A stretch of 64,000 bases of DNA from an uncultured Spirochaetota bacterium (GCA_963734545.1 CAVTHO010000004.1:352001-416000), one strand, 5' to 3'. Shown: positions 1,606-21,561, numbered from the stretch's first letter. Notes: generated by a model from the letters alone, not told the origin. A program made the numbers and translations.

Positions 1606-2829
1606 TCAGGAGAAGACCCTCCGAAGCCCCGGTATGGAGCGGACGAGCGCGGCGAAGAGAAAGCTCGCCGCTACGGCGATCGCGGAGACCACTGCCGTCT
1701 TGGCCAGGGGCGCTACCATGAACTGGTGCAGGGCAATCGAGACCGCTACCAGTATGGGCGCATGGAACACGTACACGCCGAAGGCGTTGCGGGAGAGGAA
1801 GCCTGCCACGGGGGAAGGGCCGTTCACGCGCTCGCGGTACAACGTGATGAGCCCGATGCTGATTGACACGCAGAAGAAGGACTCCCACAGGGCGTAACCC
1901 GCCGCCTGCCAGTGAAGCCCGCCGCCGAACGCGTCCATCGAGCCGGTGAGAGCGCCGCCCAGGCCTCCGAGAAGGAACCACGCGGGCACCCCGACCGCAA
2001 AGGCGAGCCGCAGCCAGCTCATGCCGAAGCTGACCGGGAGCGTGCGGAGCAGGTCCGTGCGCGCCACCCACAACCCGATGAGGAACAGCACCACGTACTG
2101 CGTGAACCAGCTGAACTGCATGTTGAGCCAGCTCGTCCCGATGGGCTGTACCATGCGGACAAGGAAGGTCACGAGCCCGATCAGGGCTATCACGGCGAGC
2201 ACTTTTCCATGCGTGAGATGTGCCGGCTTCTGCAGCTTGCGCGCCTCGACAGCCGCGGGCCCCTGAATCGCGTCCCCAACCAGCCGGACCAGCGCGTAGA
2301 GAATCGAGAAGACCAGCAGGGCAAAGGCGAACCAGAGCGGCCCGGATCCCGAAAGGAACTCGAATGATCCGATATAGCGCGCGTACCCGGCGCCGAGGGC
2401 CGCGGCCGTGATCGGCTGGCCTCGGGAAGACATCGCGAGCAGCTCGGTGAGCGGGTGGAGTATCAGCATGTAGACCAGCGTGGGAACGCCGAGCCTGAAG
2501 AGCCGGTCGCGCACGAACCTGCCGAACCCCTTGCGGTCATACGCCCGGGGAATGAAATACGCGGCGATCAGGAAGAGCATCCCCATGAAGAATGCCTGCG
2601 CGAAGCTCTGGTAGACGCTGAACACGAGAGTCGACGCGACCCCGAGCGACCCCGGCTCCTTGTAGTACCAGGAACCCATCCCGCTGTAGGTGACGCACGC
2701 GTGCATGACCACGACCATGCCGATCACAAGCCAGCGGAGATTGTCGATGAACGCCATCCGGGACCCCTCGGACGCGGCTGCCGCGACCCGGGTCCCGGTG
2801 AGCGTGGGACTGGAAACCAACTGTGCCAT
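1606..2829 (-). CDS. Acyltransferase family 3 membrane protein (OpgC/MdoC-like)
   Basis: FIDNLR..HACVTY, FFMGMLFLIAAYF, DRLFRLGVP, GPLWF and YVFHAP motifs; many TM helices; AGGAGG RBS before ATG at 2829 (ORF track start at 3150 is overextended). Confidence 0.88.
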   Translation of the reverse strand: MAQLVSSPTLTGTRVAAAASEGSRMAFIDNLRWLVIGMVVVMHACVTYSGMGSWYYKEPGSLGVASTLVFSVYQSFAQAFFMGMLFLIAAYFIPRAYDRKGFGRFVRDRLFRLGVPTLVYMLILHPLTELLAMSSRGQPITAAALGAGYARYIGSFEFLSGSGPLWFAFALLVFSILYALVRLVGDAIQGPAAVEARKLQKPAHLTHGKVLAVIALIGLVTFLVRMVQPIGTSWLNMQFSWFTQYVVLFLIGLWVARTDLLRTLPVSFGMSWLRLAFAVGVPAWFLLGGLGGALTGSMDAFGGGLHWQAAGYALWESFFCVSISIGLITLYRERVNGPSPVAGFLSRNAFGVYVFHAPILVAVSIALHQFMVAPLAKTAVVSAIAVAASFLFAALVRSIPGLRRVFS

Positions 2830-3016
2830 GACTATCCTCCTGTCATTTCTGGACATGCCACAGATATAACGCAGGAGGCATGCTTCGCGCGTCGGGCGGA
2901 GGAATGGATTTTGACTGGTCACCTGGTCCCGGGCCGGCCTAGGTCTCAGGTCTGAGGCCGGAGTTGACATCCCGCTGCGGGGGAGAGATCCTTGGAACAA
3001 TACGATTGAGGGGTCT

Positions 3017-3252
3017 GTGGAAATCGAAGACGAGGCAATGGGCATGGCATTTGTGAGCGCACCGGTCGGCGAGGCGGAAGGAATCGCCCGCGAGATCGTT
3101 CTGCGAAAGCTCGCCGCCTGCGCGCAGGTGACCTCTCCCGTCAGCAGCATCTACTGGTGGATCCACCCCTATGAGCTGCCCGAGCTCACCTTTGTGCCCA
3201 TCACGGACGGGTCGACCGAGTACCTCGCCGGGTGGCGCAGGTTCTCGGATGA
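3017..3252 (+). pseudogene. cutA: CutA divalent-cation tolerance protein with in-frame internal deletion and a 3' frameshift
   Basis: LAACAQV..SIYWW joined directly to IHPYELPE..DGSTEYL; about 30 central residues missing; restoring one base gives ..LAWVAQVLG* with TGA overlapping the next ATG. Confidence 0.75.
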
Positions 3253-4737
3253 GGGCGCCTCTGCTCCTGCTCATGATTCTCCTTCCCCTCGCGGCCGCCG
3301 GCGCGCAATCCCCCACGCTCGAAGCGGGACGGGCCCGGCTCCTCTTCGACCAGAAGAAATACGCCGAGGCGGCTGTCATCCTGGAAAAGGTTGAGAGTAC
3401 CGGGAGACAGACCCCCGCGGACCTCATCCTTCTGGGCATGTGCTACACCGAGCTCCAGGCACTGGACAAGGCGGGCGCGGTCCTCGACATGGCCGCGCTG
3501 ATGGAGCCCCGCAGCGTTCCCCTGCTGAACGCCCGTGGCAACCTCGCGTTCGCCCGCAAGCGGTTTGGCGATTCCCTCGCGTACTTTCGGGAGGCCCACC
3601 GCCTGGACCCGGGAGACAGGAACGCGCTCACCGGGATGGTGGCCTCCCTGGCAAATGCCGGGGTGGAGATGTTCGGCCAGGGCAGGACAGAGGACGCGCG
3701 AAAGTCCTTTCTGGAGGCGCTGGAGCTCGACCCGCAATCCGTGCCCGCCCTTCGGAACATGGGCATTATCGAGCTGGAGAAGGGGGACCCGGAGGTCTCG
3801 GCGCAGTATTTCGAGAGGGCGCTCGCAGTCTCCCCGGAGAGCGTGGAGCTGCTCAAGCTCCTCTTCCTTGCCCGAAACCGGCAGGGAGACACCGCGGCCA
3901 TGCTCCCGGTCCTGGACCGCCTGACAGCGGCACAGCCGGCAGATCCCGAACCGCACGCGGTGAAAGGCCGGCTGCTCGAAGCGCAGGGGAAACAGGACGA
4001 AGCTGAAGTGGAGTTCCGCAAGGCGGTGGAAAGGGGAAGCCAGGATCCCCTGCCCTACCTGCGAGCCGGCGCCGCCCGGCGCGACCGCTTCATGCTCCAT
4101 GATGCCGTGGCAAAATCGGTCCAGCTCATCGCATCATTCGAGATCCAGGCCTCCCAGGCCATCGGCAAGGCCAGGAAGGGAGAGGACCTGCGGGGCGCGA
4201 AGCTTCTCACGACGAAAGTCGAAGAGGTCCGTGCGACACTCGCTTCATCCCTCAGCCTCCTGAGGGAGATCGACGGGGACGCCGTTTTCCAGGAGGACCT
4301 GTCACGGCTCCAGTCGTGGTATCCCGGGAGCGTGGACCTGTCCGCCGCGCTCGGCAGGCTCTTCAGGGAAAAGGAGCAGTGGGACAAGTCCCTTGCAGCC
4401 TGGCAGCGAATCCTCCGGGACCGTCCCCTGGACCGGGAAGCGCAGGAGGGCGTGGGCCTGGCGCTGGAGAAGCAGGGACAGAAGGACCTGGCAGTCATGG
4501 CATACCGACAGGGCACTCGAGCTCGATCCAGAATCCGCGGATCTCTACGCTGCTCTGAGACGGCTGTATGCGGGCAGGGAAGCGGAGCTCCGCCAGATCC
4601 TGCTGGACCGCAGCTACCGAGACACGCGAAACGCGCAACTCTTCCGGGAGCTGGCAGGCCTGGAAAGCGCGCTGGGCCTGGAGGCCGAGGCCGCCGTTCA
4701 CTCGGCGCGCGCCATCCAGATCGAATCAGGGAAGTAG
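3249..4737 (+). CDS. Secreted/periplasmic tetratricopeptide-repeat protein (frameshift near 4510)
   Basis: Signal peptide MRAPLLLLMILLPLAAAGAQ; repeated TPR motifs (ALELDPQS, ALAVSPES, ALELDPES); C-terminus continues in ORF 4393..4737. Confidence 0.85.
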
Positions 4738-4761
4738 TTCCGGTTTTTTTCGGCAAAATAG

Positions 4762-4791
4762 TTTACTTTTTAACTAAGGTATCTGTATTTT
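4762..4791 (+). promoter_or_regulatory. Putative sigma70 promoter of the giant-protein operon
   Basis: AT-rich island in GC-rich DNA; TTTACT-N18-TATTTT, with ATG 6 nt after the -10 box. Confidence 0.45.
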
Positions 4792-4797
4792 AGCGCC

Positions 4798-7700
4798 ATG
4801 CGAGGCGCGAGTGTGTTCGGCGACGAACGTCGAACACTCATCTCCTGGGCCCGTCGGCTCCTGCCCCTGTTGACCTTCCTGGTCGTGATTGCTGCGCCCG
4901 CGGTGGCACAGGTATCCAATCCCAGCTTCGTGCGCATAGGCCCTGGCGCGAATCAGGCGTACTGGACCGATCCCGCGCAATTCCAGGCGAACTGGGGGGC
5001 GTCGAGCTTCGGCGCCTCGGTCTCGAACTTCTATTCTTACGTGATAGATCAGAGCGCCACTGATCCTGCTTTCAACGTCGTGACTTCAGGGCAGACACCG
5101 GCCTCTCTCTCACCGCCGACGTCAGTGACGATTCCCGGGCCGGGCTTCGTGCATGGCCAGACCTACTACGTCTGGGTGCAGGCGCATGGAGTCGGGATCA
5201 GCTCGGCGCAGGTGGTTTCCCGTCCCTTCGTTGCCGACCTCGTGCCCCCGACCGTCACGACCAGCTCCTCGAGCGGCCCGATCAGCACCAAGGCGACGTT
5301 CACGGTTTCCTGGTCGGTGACTGCCACATCCGTGATTCCCATCGACCATTACGACGTGCAGTACCGGATCAACGGCGGCCCGCTCCGCCCCTGGCTCTCA
5401 CGCACCAAGCTCACCTCCGCGAGCTTCACGGGCGACAACGGGTCCTCCTATGCCTTCCAGGTTACCGCCACCGACGCGGCGGGGCTCACCGGCACCGAAC
5501 TCCACCACGGTGGCCATCAATGTCCTGGGCGCTTCGCTCGCGCTCACCGCCTCCCCCTCGAGCCTGAGCTTCGGCGGGACCGACACGCTCAGAAACCCTC
5601 AGCCTGGATATCGGCGCCCGCGGAGGCTCGGTGAACGTCACGGACATCCGGAGAGCAGGGCGTACGCGTCATGGCCGCAGGAAGACGGCGGATGGGAGGG
5701 CATGCCGTTGAGCCTGGCCAGCGGCACTGACCAGGTCATCACGCGCTCTGTCCTGCTGTCCGTGCTGCAGCGCAGCAAGGCGCTGGGCGGCGGCTCGACC
5801 GGGAGCTTCGACCTTATCCTGACTGTGCGCGGCAAGGACGGGATCGGAAACGACGTGCAGGGCTCGGTGACCGTGCCGGTTGCCGTCTCGAGCGCTCCTC
5901 CCTCCACGCTCTCACTGGTCGGGGTTTCGGTGGAGGTTCCCGCGTCGCCCTACAATCTCGGAGACACGGTGAACGAACGCACGCGTGCACCTCACCGCCT
6001 CCGGCACGGGGACCGTCACGGGACAGGTCCTGGTGGACGGCTCCACCTCGTGGTCCGGGCACTCCTGCCTTCACCGTGACCATTACGGGAAACACTGTTT
6101 TCGACGTCCTGGGAAACCTCCCCACCTCCGTTGCCGGCAGCCACACGGTGCGGGTGGAGATTTCCTCTCCCGTCAGCCTTTCCTCGCAGACCACCTACAC
6201 GGTGAGCTCCACGCCGCCCCCCTTCCCTCCCTCATCCCTGGACCTCATCAAGGGCGTGGCCCAGCTCACGGGCCTGAGCGGCAAGGCCACCGCGGTCTCG
6301 GGCGCCGGATACACCGACTACACCTTCACCGGCAAGCGCGACCCTGACGCTGCCGAGCCTGGCCAGCCTGAACCTTCCCGGCTTCACCGTCACCAGCCTC
6401 GTGGTGCGCATGTTCGACAACCTGAGCCCGCCGCAGATCAAGGGCGGGTCCGCCGAGATAGACGCCGGCGGAGGCTCGGCTCTCACGGACTTCGCCGGCG
6501 GCTATCTCAAGATCAGGAAGATCTCATTCGACTTCGGCAAGGCTGCCGACCACCTCAGCGTGGACGCCGCCGTGGTGATCCCCAACATCGCCCAGGAGCT
6601 CTTCACGGCCAAGGACATGGTCCTCGACGCCACGGGGATTTCCAACGTCACCCTCTCCCTGGACATGGGCCATGCGCTCTCCTTCACGCTCTTCGGCATG
6701 ACCTTCTCGATCCACGACGTCCTGGGCGGAGGGTCGGATGACAACAAGGCCATCGCCTTCGGCAAGGCGGATGGGCGGCAAGGGGTACTACATCGGCATT
6801 TCGGGCGGCATCAGCATGCAGCAGAAGCAGGGCGTCACCACCACGCCGAAGGACCTGGCCACCTTCCGCAACGTGGACCTGCGCTTCTACACGGACGGGA
6901 GTCTCGACGGCAACATCAAGCTCAGCTCGCCCTTTGACCTCATCCCCAAGGACCTCTCGCTGGATTCGATCGCCATTGCCCAGGTGGCCAAGACGTACAG
7001 CCTGACCCTCTCCGGCAAGCTGAAAAACCTCCCGGCGCCGCTGGACAAGACCGGGGACCTGCCCGTGTCCTTCACCATCGACACGAGCGGCAACGGCTCG
7101 GTCAGCATTGCCGGCCATCAACAAGCTGAAGCCGGGCGGCAAGGGACACAGCGCTCCTGGGCAAGTCCGATCCCACCGAGTGGGACCTCGGTCTTGCCAC
7201 GCTGAATCTCACCTATCTCTCCCTGGACCTCTCCTTCACGGGCGGGGTCCTCGACCTGGACCACAGCCAGGTCTCACTCGCCGTGGACCTGTACCTCAAG
7301 CTGCACACCAAGGAAGGGGGGAATCCCAGCGACGATGACAGGCGGATCAGCTTCGGGGACCTGGACAACGGCGGAAAGCTCCAGGGCGGCATCATCATCG
7401 ACCTGTCGGGCAAGGTCACCTGGTCGGTGCCCGGGCACATCGAGGTGCTCAAGGACAAGCGGCTGGCCTTCGGGCCTGTCGAGCTGGCTTTCGACAAGGT
7501 CTCGATCGATCCCTCGCCGTTCGCCCTGGTGATCACCGGTTCCATCGCGGTCGACCTGGACGGAATCTCGGGAGGCATCGATTTCGACAACCTGAAGGTC
7601 GGCCTCGACGGGACCATCTCGGACGTTGCAGCCGCCGTGTCCGCGGGCGGCGGGGGCAAGCTGTCCGTCATGGACGCGGTCTCCATCGAAGTGGACTCGG

Positions 7701-10700
7701 TTGCCTGGAGCAGCAGCCCCACCACCCTCACCCTCAACGAGAACACGAGCACCGGCTCGGGTGAGAACATGACGCCGAACAAGCAGTCGAACAGCGTGAA
7801 TGTCGACAGCTACTTCTCCATGAAGGGAGCCAGCATCACCCTCGGATCGGGCTCGGATTCGATCATGAGCGGCGGCTTCGACGAGCTCACCGTCTACACG
7901 CTGGCGGCAAAGGACGGAGGCGGCATCGGTTTCGTCGTCCGCAACGCCAGCCTTTCCGTGTCCGACGCGCTCGACGTGACCGTGGACATGGAGTACTCGC
8001 CGTCGCCCCTCAGCTTCCTGTTCGCCGGCTCGCTCAGCCTGCCCAGCGTGGGGGTCAACGCGTCCGCGGTCGGGAAGGTCGGGACCCTGAACGGAAAGCC
8101 GTCCTTCGGACTGTTCGTCATCGCGGAGCTGGGTCCGGGGATTCCCATCGGACCGGGCGTCTTCCTGGATGAGCTGGGCGGAGGATTCTTCGTCAACCCG
8201 AGCGATGACGACATCGCCCTCGTGCGCAAGATCGCCAAGTTCGAGCGCCCCGAGATGGGAGACGAGATCTCAGCCCGGCGTCCCGGGGGGACCAGCAACA
8301 GCCAGTCCTTTGCCCTGATGATTCTGGGCGGGTTCTCCGTGGCGGAGAAGAACCTCGTGAGCGGCCGCGCCCTCATGACCATCACCTCCAGCTACTTCAA
8401 CCTCGACGCGGAGGTGAGCCTCATCGACGGCCTTGCCGACGGGAAGGTGTACCTCGCCATATCCTGGAACCCCGCGTACGCGGAGGGCAAGATCACCGCG
8501 GAGATGGCCTTTCCCACGCATGACGATGCTCTCGTGAGCGGCACCGGAGACCTGGACTTCTACTTCTATCCCGGAGTCTGGGGCATCGACGGCAACATGC
8601 AGATAAAAGTGCTGGGAATCAACATCGCCCAGGGCGAGATGTTCGTCGGGACTCCCGGCTTCATGGTGCAGGCCACTGTCGGGGCCGGTATCGACCTGGG
8701 CATCGTGTCCGGGTCCGTCTCCATGGGAGGGATGTTCTGGTACTACGGGCCCACGGGGACCCTCGGGGCGTACGCCCAGGTGGGCCTCAAGGGAAGCTTC
8801 CTTGCGGGGCTCTTCTCCGCGGAAGCGAGCCTGGAAGGCGCGCTCATCATCACTCCCAGCTTCCTGCTCTACAGCGTCGGCTCGCTGTCCGTCGATGTGC
8901 TGGGCGTCACCGTGTTCGACGGAAGCCTCTGGTTCGCCGTGAGCGGCAGCGGCCTGGACGGCGGCGACGGGGAGGAACTCGCAGTACGATGAGTTGATCG
9001 CGCAGGCCAAGGACATGGCACACTCCCTCAAGGCAGCCAAGGACGCGCTTGCCGCGAGCCTCGAGCAGGCCAAGCTGCAGCTCGCCCAGCTCACCGACGA
9101 GCAGGCCGCGCTTGCAGGGCTCGTGCTGACCGAGCAGCAGAAGGCCGTGTTCGGCAATCTCCCGGTCGACACCGCGTTCGACCAGTACGAAACCGGGAAG
9201 TGGGGCGGCATGCCCGAGCCCTTCGTGACCATACGCGGCGTCCTGTTCGGGTCCCAGGCAAAGGCGCTCGTGCAGGCGCGGGCGCAGATCCTCAAGACCA
9301 AGTCCGATCTGGACAACCTGCTCAAGGACCTCGAAAGCCTCCGCAAGGACGTGTCCAAGCGCCTCTCGGATTACCAGGACCTCCTGGTGGAGGCCCTTCC
9401 CAGCATCAAGGACGTGGGGACGCTCGGCAATCCGTTCCAGGGCATGCAGCAGAAGACGGTGAGCGTCGGCGGGAAGACCAAGACGGTGAAGTCCGGGTTC
9501 GTGCTGGATTCCGCCAAGGCGGACACGCAGAAAGCCACGCTCTCCTCGGCGCGCGAGAGCTTTGCCCAGTACCAGGAGGCATTCATCGAGGCTGCCGGCG
9601 GCATCGACGCGCGGCTGCAGAAGCTGGACGAGATCCTGTTCCAGGGAGATGCCAACCTCACGACCCTGAACCAGCGCTTCGCGCAGATCCACTCCCAGCT
9701 CAGCAAGTTCACGGATGACTTCGTGCAGTTCCAGGGACAGAGCATTGCCTATGCCACCGGCGGCCAGCAGACGATCGAAGGCCTGGAAGGCAGCGTCCAG
9801 AACGCGCTGGACGCGAAAGCCCAGGCCGCCAAGGGGTCAGCGGCGGTTGCCCAGCTCCAGGCCTGGAACAACAGCAGGATTCAGCTCATCTCCCAGCTCG
9901 TGCAGGCAGGCGATCCTTCCGGAAAGCCCTACGCTCCCGACACGAGTGTCTCGCCGCAGGCGCTGTTCGACGTCACCGGCTATGAGCTGTGGTTCCACAT
10001 GCCGGATGCCGGGTTTGCCGCTTCCGTTGCCGCATCACAGAAGAGCATGCCGGACCTCATCAAGTCCTTCTCGAAGTCCTCCGCGACCCTGCTGAAGAAC
10101 TGGGGTGATGCCACCGACCTCACGGACCAGGTTTTCCAGCGCAAGGCCGACCTGTACGGGCTCCTCTACGAGATCTATGACCAGCTCGCGTTCTACGGGT
10201 CGGGCAACATCGGCATTGCCGGGGACGGAAACGCCGCTGGATTCAAAGGTATCGCGGCGGCAGGGCTGTCATTCCGCGCCAGCGCTCTCTCCAAGGCGGT
10301 GAGCTCGAAGTCCGTTGCGCTGCCGCAGGGTATGCTGGCGCCGACCACGCCCACGTTCGGGCCGAACAGGTCATTGCAGAAGGCCATACCGCCAGGGCCC
10401 CCGATCAAGCAGCTCCAGCCGCCCGGGCCCCCGATCAAGCCGTCCAATTCCATCAACCTTGCCCCGATGAGCATGGAGTTCGCGGAGCTTCCTGGGATCG
10501 GCGCAGGCTTCGGCCTCTCCCTCGGCATCCAGCTCAAGGAAGTGCCATCGGGCATGCCCTCCAAGGGAGTGCTGGACCGGTCCGTGATCAGCATTCCCTC
10601 CACCATCATCAAGCCGGTGGCCTGGGTGCCGGTCACCACTTACTTTGCGGCAAAGCGCTCCGAGATTGCGCCGTACCTCGTGATCCCCCAGGTGACCCTG

Positions 10701-12929
10701 ATGAACGGGAATGCCTCGAGCTCCAGCGAGCTCGAAGCGCTGCTCCACGCGAGCTTCAACGGGACTCATCCGGTCGGAGTGGTGGAGTACGAATACCGGA
10801 TCGAGCCCATCACCATCGACAAGGGGCAGGCGGAGGAGAGCCTGTACAAGAGCTTCTTCCACGTCGGCCCAAAGAGTGCTCTGCCCACGGGCATCACGAA
10901 TCCTTCTTTTGTAAAGAAGCCGCCTGTCTCCGTCCTGCCCGCGCCTGTTTCGATGTACAGCGTGTCTCCTTCCGTGAAGCAGGGCGGGCAGGTCCTCTCG
11001 GTGTCGAATGCCCTCAGCCAGGGCCTCAGTCAGGGCAAGGGAGGAGGGCCTGGCGCCGCCACGGTGCTCATGCCCGGGTCTCTGAAAGCCGCGATACTCA
11101 GCACGACCCCATGGCTGTCCGTGGGAGGCGTCAACGACATCAACTTCCTCTTCATTCCCCAGATGCAGGACCCCGGCACCTATGCGCTCTTCCTGAAGGT
11201 CCGCGGAGCAGGCGGCAAGACCATCATCCGGCAGGGAAGGTTCAAGGTCGGCTACGCCACGCCGGGACAGAAGGTTCCTCTTACGGGCGGAATGGACACG
11301 AGTGACACGACGCCGCCGACCACACCGGTGGTGACGTTGAGCGGCGCCGCCACCGCAAACAAGGAAACCCTCTACGCGAAGTGGAGCGCGGACGACCAGT
11401 ACTCCGGCATCCAGGGCTACCAGTACGCCGTTGAAGAATACACCGACCAGACGGCAAAGGCCGGAACCGGCGCCGTGCAGGGCGCGCCGCAGGCCGTGTC
11501 GCAGGGCGGGGGAAAGCTGGTGAACAAGGTCCTGAGTGTGCAGCAGGGGACGACCAGCACCGTGCAGTACTTCCAGGCCGGAGGCCCCATGGTCTCTGCC
11601 CAGGAAGCGGCCTCACACAAGTGGGTCGATGCGCAGGGCCGCACCGAGGCCAACATCCGCGGTCTCTCCCTCGAGCAGGCGAAGCGCTACGTCGTGTGGG
11701 TCATGGCCACCAACGGCGTGGGCCGCGCGAGTATCGGCCGCTCAGACCCCATCGTCGTGGATGCCATTCCCCCCGATCCGCCGCAGATCACCGGGTTCCA
11801 GCAGACCTCGGCGGACGGCCACGCCAACTCCGTGACCTTCACCTTCACACCGGGCACCGACGCGGTGAGCGGCATCAGCGGGCACTCCTTCGCGCTCGGC
11901 ATGTCCGACAAGGACCAGAAGGCCTGGCCCTGGACGGTGGCGCAGGGAACCGCGGCCACGATCGTGAACCTTCCCGTGGCCAAGGGTCAGCAGGTGACTC
12001 TCCAGGTGAAGGCCGTGAGTGGAGCAGGGCTCGAGTCCACGGCGACAAAAACAATCACGATCACCTACCCGGGAGCCAAGCCGCCCGTCCCCTCGACAGT
12101 GGTTGCCAAGCCGCAGAACTTCACGTCCGACACGTCGAAACTGGACCTCACATGGTCCGCTGCCTCGGATCCGGACACCGGCATCGTGGCATACGAGTAC
12201 GCGGTAGGCACCTCGCCTTCCAAGCCGGACGTGCTCAACTGGACACCGGCGGCAGGGAGCTCCACGCCCTACCTCCTGGGCCAGGGGCCGCAGCAAGGGC
12301 AGGGAAACCAGGACCTGAAGGCCACCGCCTCCGTCACCCTGAAGGACAAGGCTGCGTACTACGGCCTCGTGCGCGCCACGAACGGCGGCGGTCTTGCCGC
12401 GATCGGCGCTTCCTCCGCGGTGGTCGTGGACCTTGCGCCGCCCGATGTGACGCTGACGGCAAGGGCTGAAAACCCCGGCACGGACAGGATTGCAGTTGAC
12501 GTGAGCGCGAAGGATCCGGTCTCGGGAGTGGCCCGGTACCGGGCAAAGGTCTGGCAGATGAAAGGCCCGGTCTCCGAGCGCGAGAGCGAATCCGCAATCG
12601 CGGTTCCTGTCATGGGCTGGGCATCCCAAGGCACATTCCAGGGGACACTGCAGAGCTCGGGCGTCCTGCAGCTCGCGATACCTCCGGTGGGCCAGGCGTG
12701 GTACACCACGGCATGGCTGCCGGTCACAAACGCGGCGCCGCCCACCTCCGTCGACATTCAGGTGGTCATCACCGGCTTCCCCACGCCCGGCCTTGAAATC
12801 GGCAAGTACTATCGCGTGACAGTGGAGACGATGAGCGGCTCGGGTGTATCAGGGGAGAGCAACGCGGTAGTGATCAAGGTGGTGGCTCCCGCACCCTCGT
12901 ACCGGTTCGCTCCCCGGTTCATGAAGTGA
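4798..12929 (+). CDS. Giant (~2,700 aa) secreted protein: Fn3/Ig-like domains, long beta-rich core, helical bundle, C-terminal Fn3-like repeats; split by about ten frameshifts
   Basis: Signal peptide ending ..AAPAVAQ; coding sense continues across ORFs 4798, 5450, 5985, 6076, 6401, 6738, 7108, 7283 and 8994 with no intergenic gaps or internal RBS; Fn3-like WSA..D..SGI..Y.YAVG repeats. Confidence 0.72.
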
Positions 12930-12937
12930 AAGATGCG

Positions 12938-14942
12938 ATGAAAAAAACAATCCCCGTCATCATTGCGCTCCTCGCACTCGCCGCCGCGGGAGCATCCGGC
13001 CAGGCGCGACAGCCCCCTGCGTACGTTCTCTCCGCGGGAGACAAGGTCGTCATCATCCTCGGAGACGTGCCGCGAACCCTGACCGGGTTCACCGTGCTCC
13101 GCAGGGGACCGGGGGACGCCGACTACCTGCCCATCACCGACGAGCCGGTCCGCGCGGTGGACGACCCGTTTCTCGCCCAGCAGTTGATGGGGAGCGATTT
13201 CGAGTGGATCAGCCGGAGGGTGGAGACGGCGGACCCGGATACCGCCTGGCGGAGGATCCGGGCCCGGCCCGAGCTCGGCGTCGTTCTTTCCTTCCTGAGC
13301 AATGGCCTGCGGATGGCCCTGGGGAGGACCTACTTCGATCTCGCGGTGACCCCCGGGCAGACTTATCAGTACCGCATCATCCTTCTCGACTCACTGGGCA
13401 AGGAGGCGGGAAGGATCGACAAGCAGGTCAGCGTCAGCCCTGCCCGCAAGCCTCCCGCGCCCGCCCGGGTGACCGCGCAGACCGGCAAGACCGACGTGAC
13501 GGTGAAATGGGATTATCCGAGGTTCGCAGGCGGGGACGAAGACCTGACAGTGGGGTTTGCCGTCACTCGCCGGGGGCGCGGAGGGGATCCGGTCCTCGTC
13601 ACTCCTTCACCCACGCTCCGGATCGAAGGACAGCTCCAATTCATCGACGACGCGGCGCTGCTCGAAACACCCGTCATTTACACCGTGCAGGCAGTCGATA
13701 TCATCGGGACCTTGAGTGACCCGGTGAATGCGCCCGAGGTGACGCTCAAGGACGCCGCGCCGCCCATGGCGCCCCAGGGGGTCACGGCAGTGGACCAGAA
13801 GGAGGGAGTCCTCCTCGTATGGAAGATCTCTCCCGAGGCCAATGCGGACCACTACGAGGTCTACAAGAGCGGCTCCGAGGACTCGGGCTACCAGCTCATC
13901 AGCTCCGCGCCCATCCCTGTTTCCCAGCCCCGGTTCCTCGACACGAAGCCTGTCCGGGGCGTGGTGGCGTACTACAAGGTCGTCGCTGTCAGCAGGGCGG
14001 GGGTGGCGAGCGCCAGGTCCGCCGCCTCACCCATCATCCCCCGCAAGACAACGCCGCCGGGAGCGGTCACGGGCCTGCAGTTCATCGTGGACGCGAAAAA
14101 ACGAACTGTCTCATTCACCTGGAACTCCGTTGATGAGCCTGACCTGAAGGGGTACCTGGTCTTCCGGGGAGAAAGCAGGAACAGCCTCGTGCGCCTGACC
14201 CCCCGTCCGCTGGCTCCTTCCGCCAAACCCTCATGGCAGGACGCGGGCTGGCAGGGAGCGGGTCTTCCGTCCGGGAAGACACTCGTCTACGCCATTGCGG
14301 CGATCGACACGTCATTGAATGAAGGCACGCCCCAGTTCGTGGAGGTAGCCATTCCCGACACGGCTCCTCCCGGCCCCGCGCTCTCCCTCTCAGCCCGTTC
14401 CACGCCCGAAGGCCGCGCCTCGCTGGCGTGGCAGCCCACGGCCTCACGCAGTCTTGCCCTACACCGCGTGCAGCGGAAAGCGGATGCCGCGTTCGCCACG
14501 GTGATGGAGCTGCCCGCCGGGACCGTCACGTGGATCGATGCCACGGCGGCGAAGGGCAGGACCTACACGTACCGGGTCATCGAGGTGAACGGGCTGGGGG
14601 TGGAGAGCGCGCCGTCTCCCGAAGCCACGCTCACCGTGACATCGAGCATTCCCCCGGATCCCCCGGCCTCCCTCAGCCGCGGAGCTCACCCCGAAGGGTG
14701 TGGCGCTGACCTGGACGGCCTCCCCTTCCCCGGATACCCGCGGATACCTCGTCTACCGCGCGCCGTACAAGGGCGGCCAGTTTGCCCGCGTGACACCGGC
14801 CCCGATCACCGGCACGGCATGGACCGACGCGCAGGGAGGGAAGGAAAACCTCTACGCGGTTGCCGCCGTGGACGTCTCCGGCAATGAGAGCGCGCGGGCA
14901 ACCGCGCCGGTCAAGGTGCCGGGCGCGAAAGGCGCGCAGTGA
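12938..14942 (+). CDS. Secreted fibronectin type III repeat protein (frameshift near 14678)
   Basis: Signal peptide MKKTIPVIIALLALAAAGASG; about six to seven Fn3 units (PP..P.GL/V...V.L.W...GY.VYR...Y.V.AVD..GNES); last unit is in ORF 14700..14942. Confidence 0.85.
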
Positions 14943-16885
14943 CGAGCAGAGCTCCAGAATGCAGCGGAGCTCCGCGTCGGCCGGAGCACCACGGGGCTCC
15001 GCGGCCGCTGCGGGCGGGGATGTTCCTGGCCCTGCTGCTGGGCATTCTGCAGGCCGTGCTCGGGCCTTCCCCCTCGTGGGGCCAGGTGCAGATCATCCGA
15101 GAGCTGCCCCAGACAGGAGAGAACCAGGCGCAGGCGGACTGGCGGCCGCCCCTGCCGTCCGTGCAGGCCGCTGCGCCGGAGGCAGGCCCCCTGCTCAGCG
15201 GTCGGATCAGCCTGGGCGCATCCGGCGGGGTGAATGACTCCGGAGCGCGGAGCTTCGATACGTTCACGGAGTCCAGCCTCTCGCTGCTGCTGCCCATGGG
15301 AGCCGGCAAAGGTTTCCTCCTGTCCGCTGACGCGAACCGCAATCCCCGGCTGGACGGCCTGGACCAGACGTACAAGGGAGACGCCAGGCTCACGTTTGAA
15401 GCGTGGCAGGCCGAGGTTGCCGGGGGCTATGTCCAGCATGCGAACAACCCGCCCGGCACGGGCACCTCGTCGAACGACACAACAGGTGACATACGCGCGG
15501 CGCTCACCCTCAGTATGATCCCGACCCTGCCGATAAGCGCGACCTACTCCTATCAGCAGCTCTCCCAGAAGCAGTCGGACTCCACGGGCGCCTCTTCCCT
15601 GACCACGGACCAGGGGCAGCACCAGGCGCAGCTCAAGGCAGTCGGCACCCTGGGTGAAGTCGGCGTGGACTCCGGCGCGAGCTTTTCCGACGTCACCGAC
15701 GACGCCAAGGGCATGCAGACCACGGGCTTCGACGGAAAAGTCGGTGTCACGGTGCCGGTGGCATCGTTCCTCAAGGCTTACGCCACTCTCATACCGAAGT
15801 ACAACGCAACCTCCTACTCGCAGACGGGCAATGACGTGACGACCACCAGCCTGGAGAGTGATGCCGGCGTGATCTTCCCCCTCTCGGATTCATTCTCGTT
15901 CCGGATGGGGGCCGGGAGGATCGACCAGTGGTCGAAGCAATCAGGGCCGTCCGCTGACACGGACCCCACGGTGCCCCCCTACAGCGTGACCTGGAAAGGG
16001 ACCGCGGGGGTCGAATGGAAGCAGCCAACCGGCTTCAATGCATCGTCCAACTACGCTTTTGGAAAGACGGTCTCCGGTCCCTATATCCACTCACTGGATG
16101 CCCTGGTTGCCTGGCATGGCGAGCAGAACGACGCGCTGAAAGATGTCCAGGTCGGGGGAACAGACGCGGTTTCAGTGGATAACTGGGGCACACCGGTGAA
16201 CAACCAGGCAACCTGGAAGGCGTCACTGGGATTTGGCGATCAGAGCGCGCTCGCCGTGGCCGCAAGCTACACCGGAAGCGCGAGCGGCATCTCACAGATC
16301 TCGCTGACAAACACGGCGCACGCGGGGGTCACCGACCAGGTTGTGTCCTGGTTCTCCTGGTCGGCGAGCGGCGACCTCTCCCACTCAAAGGCCCCTGACG
16401 CGCAGGCGACATTTCTGCAGACCTACCAGGGCAAGGTCACCGTGACGCCTCGATTCGGAGACAGCGTGGTGACATTTGCCGCGGATGACGCCCTCTCCCT
16501 GGACCTGGTGGCGAGCCCGGACCTGATCGTGTCCAAGGCGGGAGCAGAGGTCTCCGCACCGGTGCTGTCGTTCCTTACCACACGGTACCGGTTCGACTGG
16601 GAATGGGACAGCGTGCCGTTCCCCGACGCGTCCGGGCCGGACAGCAACTTCCGCAACGCGCTCGGGCTCACCTTCAGCGGCCAGGGCCAGCCCGTTTCCC
16701 TTACCACCGAATACGCCCTGTCCTTCGGATTTCGGGGGCTTCGTCACGACGGCACCCTCGCGCTGACCGCGAATCTCTGGCAAGGGTTCGCCCTGACCAT
16801 GGCAGTCAGCGTCAGCGAGTACGAGTCCGGAGGCAAGCCGAACCTTCCCTTCCTGGCGCGGTTGAGCGGCACCTACACGTTCTAG
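14939..16885 (+). CDS. Putative outer-membrane beta-barrel protein
   Basis: Hydrophobic signal-like segment (possible start 15020); alternating amphipathic beta pattern throughout; C-terminal ARLSGTYTF beta-signal; GTG overlaps the upstream TGA. Confidence 0.7.
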   Translation: MTSRAPECSGAPRRPEHHGAPRPLRAGMFLALLLGILQAVLGPSPSWGQVQIIRELPQTGENQAQADWRPPLPSVQAAAPEAGPLLSGRISLGASGGVNDSGARSFDTFTESSLSLLLPMGAGKGFLLSADANRNPRLDGLDQTYKGDARLTFEAWQAEVAGGYVQHANNPPGTGTSSNDTTGDIRAALTLSMIPTLPISATYSYQQLSQKQSDSTGASSLTTDQGQHQAQLKAVGTLGEVGVDSGASFSDVTDDAKGMQTTGFDGKVGVTVPVASFLKAYATLIPKYNATSYSQTGNDVTTTSLESDAGVIFPLSDSFSFRMGAGRIDQWSKQSGPSADTDPTVPPYSVTWKGTAGVEWKQPTGFNASSNYAFGKTVSGPYIHSLDALVAWHGEQNDALKDVQVGGTDAVSVDNWGTPVNNQATWKASLGFGDQSALAVAASYTGSASGISQISLTNTAHAGVTDQVVSWFSWSASGDLSHSKAPDAQATFLQTYQGKVTVTPRFGDSVVTFAADDALSLDLVASPDLIVSKAGAEVSAPVLSFLTTRYRFDWEWDSVPFPDASGPDSNFRNALGLTFSGQGQPVSLTTEYALSFGFRGLRHDGTLALTANLWQGFALTMAVSVSEYESGGKPNLPFLARLSGTYTF

Positions 16886-19146: not shown

Positions 19147-19795
19147 GGCGGCGGATGAGCTCCCGTTTGCCTTCGTCCGCGAACTCGGGCATGCTCTGCA
19201 GCCTCTGCCGGAGCGCGCGGTCGGACGACCTGCCGTGGTAGAGGTCCAGGACCGAGGCAATGCTGATACCTTCCGGGTTTCTTTTCACGAGGTCGAAGCT
19301 GTCCCCCGCCCGGACCAGGCCCTCCTCCAGCGTGCGCATGTGAAAACCGCACTTCCCGCTCTCTTTTGCCAGGCGATGCAGGGAAGGGATGTCCGTGATC
19401 CGGTCGATGGTGGGGCAGGGGTCACGCGGCAGGGTGACCTGCGCGAGCGCGCCGCCGATCCGGATGATATCGCCGATGCAGATCTCCTGTTCCCGCACGC
19501 CTTCGACCGTCAGGTTTTCGCTGAATGCGCCAAACAGCAATTCGTAGCCGTGCACGGAATTCCACCAGGCGTAGTGTTCGGCCGGGTACACGCAGGCCGT
19601 GCGGTCGGGGCCCCCGTGATGGCGGCGGTCGGCCACCCCGTCGCCTTCGAAGCCGTCGAACCGCAGGATGGCGCCGGCCGCGGAAGCCTTGGCTCCTCCG
19701 GTGAACAATGTCCCGGATTGACGCGTCTCCGACCGGGGAACCCCCACGTGAATCGACACGACAATCATGCGGCCCGCGTGTCCGGGTTCACTCAA
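19139..19795 (-). CDS. MOSC domain-containing protein (YiiM-like)
   Basis: GDGVADRRHHGGPDRTACVY, FSENLTV, PRDPC, GFHMRTLEEG. Confidence 0.88.
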   Translation of the reverse strand: MSEPGHAGRMIVVSIHVGVPRSETRQSGTLFTGGAKASAAGAILRFDGFEGDGVADRRHHGGPDRTACVYPAEHYAWWNSVHGYELLFGAFSENLTVEGVREQEICIGDIIRIGGALAQVTLPRDPCPTIDRITDIPSLHRLAKESGKCGFHMRTLEEGLVRAGDSFDLVKRNPEGISIASVLDLYHGRSSDRALRQRLQSMPEFADEGKRELIRRLG

Positions 19796-20496
19796 TCCGT
19801 GATCTCCAGCTTGATGCGCTTGTTGATTTTCCCCTTGCTCTCGTAGCCGGCCACCTTGATGGTGCCCACCTCGCGGGTATTGGCCACGTGCGTCCCGCCG
19901 TCAGCCTGCAGGTCGAGACCCTGGATCTCGACGATCCGCACTTCCCGGATGCCTTCCGGGAGGAGGTTGATCCTGGTGCGGATGAGATCCGGGATCTGGA
20001 AGGCATCCTCCCGGGGGAGGACCTTCACCAGGACGGGCCGGGCCGCCGCTACTTCGGCATTGATGCGCGTTTCGATCTCCGCCACCAGCTCGTGCCCCAG
20101 AGTCTCGAACTCGAAGTCCATCCGCCCCTTCAGCGGCTCCATGTTGCCGCCCGTCACCTGCGCCTTCCAGTCGCGCCAGACCACGCCGCAGAGGATGTGG
20201 AAGGCCGTGTGCGTTCGCATGAGCCGGTAGCGCAGGTCCCAGTCCAGCTTCCCGGAGACGGTGCTGCCGGGCGCAGGAGGCTCACCGTCGAGCCAGTGCC
20301 ACACCGCGTCACCCTGACGGCCCGTGCGGAGCACGGGGATTCCGTTCAACCAGCCCCGGTCATATGGCTGGCCTCCCCCACCCGGGAAGAAGGCGGTCTT
20401 GTCCAGGGCAACCGAGCGCTCGCCGGCATTGACCTCCACGATCTTTGCCTCGAATTCCTTCAGGTATGAGTCCCGATGGCAGAGAAGGTCCGTCAT
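19792..20496 (-). CDS. alaX: Alanyl-tRNA editing protein (AlaX family)
   Basis: DSYLKEF, TAFFPGGGGQPYD, MRTHTAFH, DGGTHV; own GGAGG RBS before ATG at 20496. Confidence 0.9.
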   Translation of the reverse strand: MTDLLCHRDSYLKEFEAKIVEVNAGERSVALDKTAFFPGGGGQPYDRGWLNGIPVLRTGRQGDAVWHWLDGEPPAPGSTVSGKLDWDLRYRLMRTHTAFHILCGVVWRDWKAQVTGGNMEPLKGRMDFEFETLGHELVAEIETRINAEVAAARPVLVKVLPREDAFQIPDLIRTRINLLPEGIREVRIVEIQGLDLQADGGTHVANTREVGTIKVAGYESKGKINKRIKLEITD

Positions 20497-20582
20497 AGAA
20501 TCCTCCGGGTGAAGAATACGCCCGGGGTGCCCGGCAGACAAGACACGAGCGAGCGTGATCGCCGCGGTCGAACCGCCGCGCG

Positions 20583-21561
20583 CTATCGCGGCGCGGAGCG
20601 GCAGAGCCGGAAGCCGCGCACGAAGTGTATGTTGAATCCCCAGTTCGGATCGAGCCATTGCCCGGGCTGAAGCCCGCACGAAATAGGGATCGCTGCCGAA
20701 GAATCCGCCGCGCACCACGCGCACATTGTAGCCGTTGGATCCTGAGTAGCCGCTTTCCTCGTCTCCGCCCTTTGGATTGTCCCGAGGCGATTTCGAATAG
20801 TAGGCTTCGTCGAACAGGTCGTTGCACCATTGCATGACGTTTCCCCCCATGTCATGCAGACCAAGCGCGTTGGAAGGGAAAGTACCCACCGGCATTGTCC
20901 GGCCCCGGCTTTTCCCGGTTTCAGAATAACCCTTCTTGCAGTCCCTGCTTCCGTTGAAGTTGATTTCTTTGGGGCTCGCCCTGTTCTTGCCGTTCCCGAA
21001 TCTTATCCTCTTCCCCCGCTCCCGCGCCGCATACTCCCATTCCGCTTCAGTGGGCAGACGGTACCCGTCCGCGCTCCAATCCTCGGTCACTTCATGTCCA
21101 TCCACGTATACCCATACGACTGACTCGGGGCCGCGCGCGGTTTCATGAAGCCAGACCTGCGTGACCCCGCTTCCCTTGATGTCATAGAATGGCGCGAGTC
21201 CTTCTTTTCTGCTGAGCCAGTTGCAGTATTTGACGGCATCGTTCCAGCTTACATCGCTCACCGGCCGCTTTCCCCTGCCCCAGCCCTGGTCTTCAGGTTT
21301 CCCGCGGCCCGTGTCGGCGCAGAAAGCGTCGAACTCCTCGAATGTCACGCAGTAATTGCCCAGGTAGAAGCTGTCCAATGTGACGGTATGCACCGGAACT
21401 TCGATCGAGCTCGCCCCGCCGTCCCCGAATGTATCGCCCATCTCGAACGTGCCGCCAGGGATAAGAACCATCCGGCTGGGCGAATTGTCGGCACCCCGCG
21501 GTGCGAACGCCAGAATCGCACAGAGGGACAGCGCGGCGAATGTAATCATTGACTTTATCAT
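20583..21561 (-). CDS. Formylglycine-generating enzyme (SUMF1/FGE-sulfatase) domain protein, frameshift near 20665
   Basis: Signal peptide; PVHTVTLDSF, VSWNDAVKYCNWLS, YRLPTEAEWEYAAR, GLHDMGGNV..WC; the terminal GFRLCR is in ORF 20583..20864. Confidence 0.85.

Follow-up and report, generated by a model that had tools for sequence, protein, structure and literature searches.

A giant surface protein with a barrel of its own in the outer membrane is an arrangement known from described secretion systems; this is the case for two-partner secretion (TpsB/TpsA, CdiB/CdiA), in which a dedicated barrel stands beside a giant surface protein exported by the general secretory (Sec) pathway, and for the type B cargo of the type IX secretion system (T9SS), where a giant immunoglobulin (Ig)-repeat surface protein comes with a PorP/SprF-like barrel. 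Here, we describe a four-gene module of comparable outline found in a 64,000-nucleotide stretch of the genome of an uncultured Spirochaetota bacterium (GCA_963734545.1, contig CAVTHO010000004.1, positions 352001 to 416000; the whole stretch is hereafter called the window). On the + strand, between positions 3249 and 16885, it encodes, in this order, a tetratricopeptide repeat (TPR) protein, a giant protein, an array of fibronectin type III (Fn3) domains, and a beta-barrel. We propose that these genes form a self-contained module for the export or display of the giant protein through the outer membrane without the help of T9SS, a predicted function to which we give a probability of about 0.5.

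The module departs from each of its described counterparts. Unlike two-partner secretion, it shows no Omp85/ShlB barrel, POTRA, TPS domain, or beta-helix in Pfam searches, and no POTRA-like domain is present in the barrel model; its barrel has about 30 strands instead of 16, and the Fn3 array and the TPR protein are additional constant partners. MtrCAB (MtrB, PDB 6r2q), which provides the best structural match, has a large plugless barrel of a kind that could sheathe a partner, but the four module proteins contain no CXXCH motif and zero or one cysteine each, and the module barrel has no sequence similarity and a TM-score of 0.44 only. The chaperone-usher pathway (FimD/PapC) also combines a large barrel with Ig-like partners; the module, in contrast, has no Pfam match to an usher (PF00577) or a PapD-like chaperone, no plug or usher periplasmic domains in its barrel model, and a six-domain Fn3 array as partner in place of a two-domain chaperone. 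In Slam/type XI secretion, an N-terminal TPR region is fused to a 14-strand DUF560 barrel, whereas the module has them as two distinct proteins, without any DUF560 match. The initial annotation of the locus had noted that it fits no classical secretion gene set, and we agree: among the Pfam and NCBIfam models of known secretion systems, there is none that matches the module, and our literature searches found no description of it.

The TANFOR giants of Bacteroidetes also have to be considered. Jana, Salomon, and Bosis (2020) proposed them as polymorphic toxins (PMC7073777); the part of that article drawn on here presents giants with a Sec signal that carry toxins, reports Fn3 proteins (COG3401) as enriched beside TANFOR genes, and leaves the export route open, with T9SS as a speculation. 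The module giant shares the Sec signal and the Fn3 neighbor with them, and a TANFOR-like giant described below (locus L074) has Fn3 and barrel partners of the families seen at core-bearing loci. The spirochaete giant differs from the TANFOR toxins in having neither TANFOR domain, nor toxin domain, nor immunity gene, and the barrel, the TPR protein, and the conserved core are module features absent from that same part of the TANFOR description (PMC7073777).

Anatomy of the four-gene module

The features of the module are as follows, in window coordinates (aa, amino acids; ORF, open reading frame; HMM, hidden Markov model):

3249-4737, + strand: TPR gene, fourth member of the module, with stop codon TAG at 4735-4737 (Pfam TPR_2, E = 2.1e-28)
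4738-4797, no strand: AT-rich spacer of 60 bp from the TPR gene to the giant gene (read from the sequence)
4798-12929, + strand: gene of the giant, putatively exported protein, about 2,700 aa (in frame pieces here; intact single ORFs in five orthologous loci)
4798-7162, + strand: predicted signal peptide and N-terminal Fn3/Ig-like region (Pfam fn3, 1e-10 on an intact orthologue)
7163-8977, + strand: conserved all-beta core, about 600 aa (alignment; motifs GGGFF.NP, PGFM, and LEGAL)
8970-10310, + strand: conserved region of about 450 aa after the core (HMM coverage 0.56-0.88 in 94 distant giants)
10311-12929, + strand: proline-rich linker and C-terminal Fn3/Ig-like array (weak fn3 and FN3_DSCAM matches)
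12938-14942, + strand: Fn3-array gene, about 668 aa (Pfam fn3; PDB profile matches)
14939-16885, + strand: beta-barrel gene, 621 aa, with GTG at 14939 and an alternative ATG at 15020 (AlphaFold2 model)

The last three genes are co-oriented and tightly coupled, as first annotated: the stop codon of the giant gene (TGA, 12927-12929) is followed after 8 bp by the start of the Fn3 gene (ATG, 12938), and the stop codon of the latter (TGA, 14940-14942) overlaps the GTG at 14939 of the barrel gene. This four-nucleotide NTGA overlap is kept in 4/4 intact orthologues examined, from two families. An AT-rich promoter had also been suggested in front of the giant gene; the spacer at 4738-4797 is indeed AT-rich, but a sigma-70 pattern scan of it returned no site. 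All four products, that of the TPR gene included, start by eye with a basic and then a hydrophobic stretch, which agrees with the signal-like N-termini reported for the other three; a lipobox cysteine is found in none of them.

The giant gene is split into seven frame pieces between 4798 and 12929 in the present assembly; we, therefore, used intact orthologues for our searches and mended no base. In five genomes, these orthologues are single ORFs of 2,710, 2,698, 2,852, 2,803, and 2,600 aa from the chosen start, their stop-to-stop frames measuring 2,722, 2,710, 2,855, 2,806, and 2,627 aa, respectively.

The last gene had been annotated as coding for an outer-membrane barrel ending in Y-x-F. 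Its product does have an aromatic end (...YTF), and both AlphaFold2 (AF2) modeling and fold searches found a barrel fold. The AF2 model, built from 16 sequences (pLDDT 81.4, pTM 0.63), has about 30 antiparallel strands by DSSP, running to the last residue, and contains no plug domain. Foldseek ranked MtrB first (E = 3e-9, TMq 0.44), followed by TonB-dependent receptors and LptD; VIA-align against about 48,000 chains also put MtrB on top (Z 16.6, rmsd 6.7, 464 residues over 55-621), other barrels such as the translocation-domain pore of FimD (Z 14.1 over 344 residues) and LptD (Z 10.8) coming behind. MtrB is, thus, the best match of fold; generic barrels score nearly as high, and there is no sequence relation. 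Going by the model, this protein is a large transmembrane barrel.

In sequence, the window barrel has no relative in Pfam, NCBIfam, or PDB; the orthologue at locus L013 gives a sub-threshold match to Pfam OMP_b-brl (17 bits vs. a cut-off of 28.7), and the one at locus L016 matches no Pfam family. A homologue search with the barrel gave only 19 close proteins, all of them unnamed or labelled hypothetical, and a second profile search gave the same 19. Residues 1-55 are disordered in the model yet include invariant residues. Just after the predicted signal peptide, we observed a peptide of the form ..V.IVR.LP....N...A.W..P.P.. (15020-15190), several positions of which are invariant across three spirochaete families; it may be a docking peptide.

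With an HMM built from eight spirochaete giants, we aligned 94 distant giants, each 3,000 aa long or longer. The first 600 aa or so are spirochaete-specific, and the last 190 aa or so before the core (from about nucleotide 6600) already belong to a unit found across phyla; this unit spans model positions 600 to 1790 approximately and comprises the pre-core beta region, the core, and a probably helical region, some of the C-terminal Fn3 domains being common as well. Many distant relatives start with a ..PSPY.SDWE.. module in place of the spirochaete N-terminus. The GIPIGPG..FL..LGGGFF motif of the initial annotation was found again, and 84 aligned relatives retain its GGGFF.NP core. Searched against 1.84 billion representatives, the core profile matches 193 clusters (50% identity) at E ≤ 1e-3; for 127 of these, the match reaches E ≤ 1e-30, and most of the matching proteins are 2,000-6,400 aa long.

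Pfam recognizes Fn3/Ig-type domains alone on the giant, near both ends (window pieces and two intact orthologues), and no toxin domain was found with Pfam or NCBIfam on the window pieces, the intact orthologues, or the distant giants. The core has no sequence relative in Pfam, NCBIfam, or PDB. A language-model search proposed DUF6603 (PF20248) for it with a look-alike score of 0.94; we rejected this candidate, as hmmscan gave no match in 10 core sequences and a PF20248 search of five carrier genomes missed the giants; a literature search gave no paper on this domain either. Foldseek matches of an AF2 model of the core (TM about 0.2) were also discarded as unusable. We take the region after the core to be helical, going by its composition and two weak NCBIfam matches to helical proteins (xenorhabdolysin-A, E = 0.028; SMC, E = 0.093); a protein-atlas search with this region gave no usable match. 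By hydrophobicity, the giant has no transmembrane segment beyond the predicted signal peptide, and none in 8970-10310 in particular. It ends with an Ig-like domain and a short basic tail; in the last 70 aa of 30 giants, most tails are by eye made of a similar NG-AG-L-type Ig-like motif and a short tail.

The Fn3-array protein consists of a distinctive N-terminal domain, absent from Pfam, NCBIfam, and PDB, followed by about five Fn3 domains; a PDB profile search matched titin and fibronectin arrays over profile positions 140 to 650 approximately. Proteins from WOR-3, Latescibacterota, and other bacteria align with it from end to end at 30-41% identity. The ALGRTYFD..V.PGQTYQYR motif initially reported in the first domain was recovered as LGRTY.D...G..Y.YR in 21/21 aligned proteins. 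In a tree of 21 Fn3 proteins, a single clade (100/100) unites the 11 spirochaete rows, next to another bacterium and WOR-3; this tree has only a midpoint root and, for this reason, does not tell in which direction any transfer went.

The TPR gene, initially mentioned as a possible accessory, turned out to be a constant fourth member with a variable position: it lies beside the module in 13/13 assessable Spirochaetota loci and in five loci of other phyla, upstream in the genus of the window and downstream of the barrel gene in other families. Its probable start is the ATG of MRAPLLL..., another ATG being found upstream at 3171. Besides TPR_2, the protein matches 18 other Pfam families, nearly all of TPR type. 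TPR_Slam appears only on the non-spirochaete TPR proteins, as one of several overlapping TPR models, above its cut-off on the WOR-3 protein and below it on one of the Bacteroidota phylum.

Synteny across phyla and absence of SprA

One genome per species was scanned with the core alignment, which yielded 23 loci: 14 from Spirochaetota (or a subgroup), one from Bacteroidota, two from Latescibacterota, three from WOR-3, and three others. The giant, Fn3, barrel, and TPR genes are found together in 13 of the 14 Spirochaetota loci, the contig of the fourteenth stopping inside the giant gene; a divergent barrel gene was seen at one locus. In 19 of the 20 loci whose contig runs past the giant stop codon, the gene after the giant is that of the Fn3 protein. 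In WOR-3, Latescibacterota, and one further locus, the order is giant, Fn3, TPR, and lastly a protein of 520-560 aa that has a signal peptide and ends in an aromatic residue; in two further genomes, the Fn3 gene is followed by the gene of a 618-631-aa protein with ..VYNF at its end. These non-spirochaete barrel candidates match no Pfam family.

Loci of Bacteroidota pairing a barrel, an Fn3 protein, and a giant had been mentioned in the initial annotation, and they do exist. We sampled 301 genomes from the phylum of the Bacteroidota-labelled genome; 31 match the Fn3 profile at E ≤ 1e-40, 11 of them with full-length matches, and we examined the 12 best full-length places, picked by Fn3 score and not by their neighbors. 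At 11 of these 12 places, a giant of 3,463-4,618 aa that matches the giant HMM lies adjacent; at nine, so does a barrel candidate with homology to that of WOR-3 and Latescibacterota (E from 1e-34 to 1e-68), the stretches of the remaining three ending before any barrel could be seen; the TPR gene is found at five. The gene set is, thus, syntenic in Spirochaetota and found again in WOR-3, Latescibacterota, and the Bacteroidota phylum.

The twelfth place, L074 (G094:C6:82800-102700, positions 2308-12233), carries a TANFOR-like giant of 1,994 aa without the core (33 bits on the TANFOR model TIGR02542, below its cut-off), then an Fn3 gene and a barrel candidate, both from the families present at the core-bearing loci. 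With the same partners beside a different giant, this place suggests that giants of more than one kind are served by these partners, as cargo is by machinery.

SprA (TIGR04189), the T9SS translocon protein, was found in none of five spirochaete carriers of the module, which are 89-97% complete; as a positive control, the same search was above cut-off in 5/5 carriers of other phyla, so that the carriers tested from the Fibrobacteres-Chlorobi-Bacteroidetes group do have SprA. The GldM model was above cut-off in 0/5 of these control carriers and is, thus, uninformative as a T9SS marker.

Within Spirochaetota, the barrel gene was found in 5/20 other genomes of the genus and in 3/20 further genomes (four of the same family and 16 from elsewhere in the order); a sample of 400 other genomes from the phylum gave no instance of the core. 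Some carriers show particular arrangements. The Bacteroidota-labelled genome has a 3,970-aa giant (L036) with no partner genes beside it and, at the start of another contig (L051, G041:C5:1-12000), an Fn3 gene with a 693-aa ORF after it, then unrelated ORFs that include one for a 275-aa protein ending in ..YYTF. A Latescibacterota-labelled genome of 2.0 Mb (G042; L037, L038, L045, and L048) contains two giant cores and two full-length Fn3 partner genes and, thus, seems to have two modules.

Export or display against other explanations

The export or display of the giant fits these observations best because the Fn3 protein and the barrel (and the TPR protein) are constant while the giants vary, the products bear predicted Sec signals, the modeled barrel is plugless, and SprA is missing from the spirochaete carriers. 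All four proteins would probably be exported by Sec, the plugless barrel of about 30 strands taking its place in the outer membrane. The giant, with Ig/Fn3 arrays on either side of its conserved unit of about 1,200 aa (a beta core and a region that is probably helical), would then use the barrel as its passage or its anchor and, in this way, come to lie on the cell surface. The Fn3 protein could be an adaptor or a stalk between the giant and the barrel, because its gene is next after that of the giant and translationally coupled to that of the barrel. The TPR protein may act as a periplasmic docking or assembly factor, by analogy with the TPR partners of other outer-membrane barrels. Localization, binding partners, and direction of transport are what we infer at this stage, and words such as “cargo”, “scaffold”, and “secretion” should be understood as presumed roles. 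A broader scheme, which we put forward tentatively as possible but less likely than export or display as such, is an undescribed T9SS-independent pathway in which the Fn3 adaptor and the TPR protein hand interchangeable giant Ig-repeat cargo, TANFOR-class toxins included, to a dedicated barrel; the Fn3 array may even thread the barrel as MtrA threads MtrB.

Several observations weigh against this explanation. The spirochaete barrel and the non-spirochaete barrel candidates have no detectable homology (hhalign probabilities of 1.4% and 1.3%; 14.6-25% and out of register with a larger profile), and the spirochaete barrel profile found nothing in five non-spirochaete carriers; the idea of a single machine, thus, rests on gene position and on the Fn3 and giant families. 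Of the cross-phylum system initially proposed, the co-occurrence of giant, Fn3, TPR, and putative barrel genes is supported; a sequence relationship between the barrels was not detected. In one Bacteroidota-labelled genome, the single exception among the 20 loci mentioned above, the giant and a putative Fn3-TPR pair are on separate contigs. The AF2 model of the core reached a pLDDT of 51.7 only, and no RNA run was found to contain the locus. Lastly, the giant could stay in the periplasm.

This last point leads to the main rival explanation, in which the four proteins build a structural envelope complex (an outer-membrane tether or a periplasm-spanning scaffold) where the giant is periplasmic, the barrel is an anchor, and nothing is secreted. 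The predicted signal peptides on all four proteins without a recognized sorting tail are compatible with it, and so are the barrels resembling ours: MtrB, the best structural analogue, sheathes its partner rather than exporting it, and 30-strand barrels such as SlpA (Foldseek rank 33) are tethers. On the other hand, the module is present in phyla with very different envelopes, Ig/Fn3 arrays around a globular unit are typical of surface fibres, and the related TANFOR-class giants carry, according to the part of the article drawn on here, toxins that must leave the cell (PMC7073777). We, thus, consider a non-secreting envelope structure unlikely, though it deserves to be taken seriously.

It is less probable still that the module serves the contact-dependent delivery of TANFOR-class polymorphic toxins, with the giant as toxin carrier and its partners as export apparatus. 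A likeness to TANFOR proteins had been proposed for this locus, and it stood in part: with the NCBIfam model TIGR02542 (cut-off 67 bits), a distant relative with the same core has a TANFOR-like N-terminus at 28 bits (E = 1.7e-6) and the WOR-3 giant scores 15 bits, both below threshold, but nothing matched at E ≤ 0.1 in the spirochaete giant (window pieces and intact L013 orthologue). In the 301 genomes of the Bacteroidota phylum, none has a bona fide TANFOR protein above the cut-off and six have weak matches. The Fn3 proteins enriched beside TANFOR genes (PMC7073777) and the same Fn3 and barrel partners at L074 speak for toxin delivery; against it, we note that the spirochaete giant lacks a toxin domain, that most of the 30 tails compared above are, by eye, alike, and that the giant gene is followed by the Fn3 gene and not by any small immunity-like gene.

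We regard it as very unlikely that the giant is a T9SS substrate and the barrel its PorP/SprF- or PorV-like carrier or anchor. This explanation draws on the T9SS export speculated for TANFOR giants (PMC7073777) and on the SprA found in all five non-spirochaete carriers; against it, SprA was found in none of the five spirochaete carriers. Moreover, no NCBIfam model of a T9SS C-terminal domain matched the window pieces, the intact L013 orthologue, or four distant giants (P0040, P0099, L041, and L036). The module barrel is also far larger, with about 30 strands vs. the 14 of the PorV barrel.

Synthase-dependent polysaccharide export has, as the standard set at its outer-membrane end, a TPR protein and a barrel, and one may ask whether the TPR protein and the barrel of the module export a polysaccharide (like AlgK/AlgE, PgaA, BcsC, or PelB) that the Fn3-rich proteins bind or process. 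Fn3 domains are common in carbohydrate-active proteins, and weak RGI_lyase and chitinase matches were obtained here; no synthase or glycosyltransferase, however, is kept with the module, its flanks vary between loci, and there is no Pfam match to barrels of the AlgE, BcsC, or PgaA type, so that we give this explanation hardly any credit.

The frame breaks remain to be accounted for. By comparing the window over 4700-9100 with contigs of close strains (mostly 90-99% alike) from four metagenome runs, we found the following in the giant gene:

about 5495, 5975, 6055-6059, 6334-6337, 6776, 7109-7113, 7153, and 8968, + strand: eight single extra bases (contig comparison)

Wherever they cover these sites, the close-strain contigs lack exactly one base at each of the eight, and the sites coincide with the frame changes mapped against an intact orthologue; one further one-base site, at 5592, was seen in two of the four runs. 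Because the close-strain contigs are without the extra bases and the orthologues are intact, errors of assembly, and not biology, are the most likely source of the breaks in the giant gene. The gene is, thus, intact in the population, which we count in favor of export or display. The TPR gene has one frame change near 4510 (4505-4515), mapped against an intact orthologue, and the Fn3 gene has one between 14664 and 14821, placed near 14685 by reading frames; these two lie outside the compared 4700-9100 region and, being of the same kind as those of the giant gene, are presumably assembly errors too. The least likely explanation of all, a cluster of pseudogenes decaying in the host genome, could invoke the ten frame changes that the three genes show in the assembly, and is most improbable in view of the missing counterparts of all eight extra bases in the contigs of the four runs, of the 54-89% amino-acid identity to orthologues (best match of every frame piece), and of the other assemblies, some of those with few contigs being broken at different places and intact copies occurring mostly in more fragmented ones.

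Contigs of related strains also depart from the window at 4736 (the spacer between the TPR and giant genes) and at several points between 7866 and 8921 in the giant gene, which suggests strain-level variation or recombination in the population. As to the surroundings, the module region has a G+C content of 63-69% and is flanked by an acyltransferase-3 gene and a major facilitator superfamily transporter gene on the other strand; the host genome amounts to 5.1 Mb in 10 contigs and is 89% complete. Further on, at 19792-21561 on the - strand, a 589-aa ORF joins an FGE-sulfatase-like domain (E = 6e-49) with tRNA_SAD and tRNA-synt_2c segments of alanyl-tRNA-synthetase type; this ORF is an unusual fusion or else the result of an assembly error that joined two genes.

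Implications for giant surface proteins

Few products of uncultivated bacteria are as poorly understood as giant surface proteins. The present analysis defines a four-gene unit, the giant core of which matches 193 sequence clusters and the synteny of which extends to at least four phyla. Since its spirochaete carriers are devoid of the T9SS translocon, they offer a clean setting for asking whether a barrel, an Fn3 protein, and a TPR protein are sufficient to place a protein of 2,700 residues on the cell surface; if they are, the module would be a new kind of secretion system, and the build-up of Fn3 genes beside TANFOR toxin genes would also be explained. For the pathway that we tentatively suggest, the spirochaete version, with a barrel family of its own and without SprA, would naturally serve as proof of independence.

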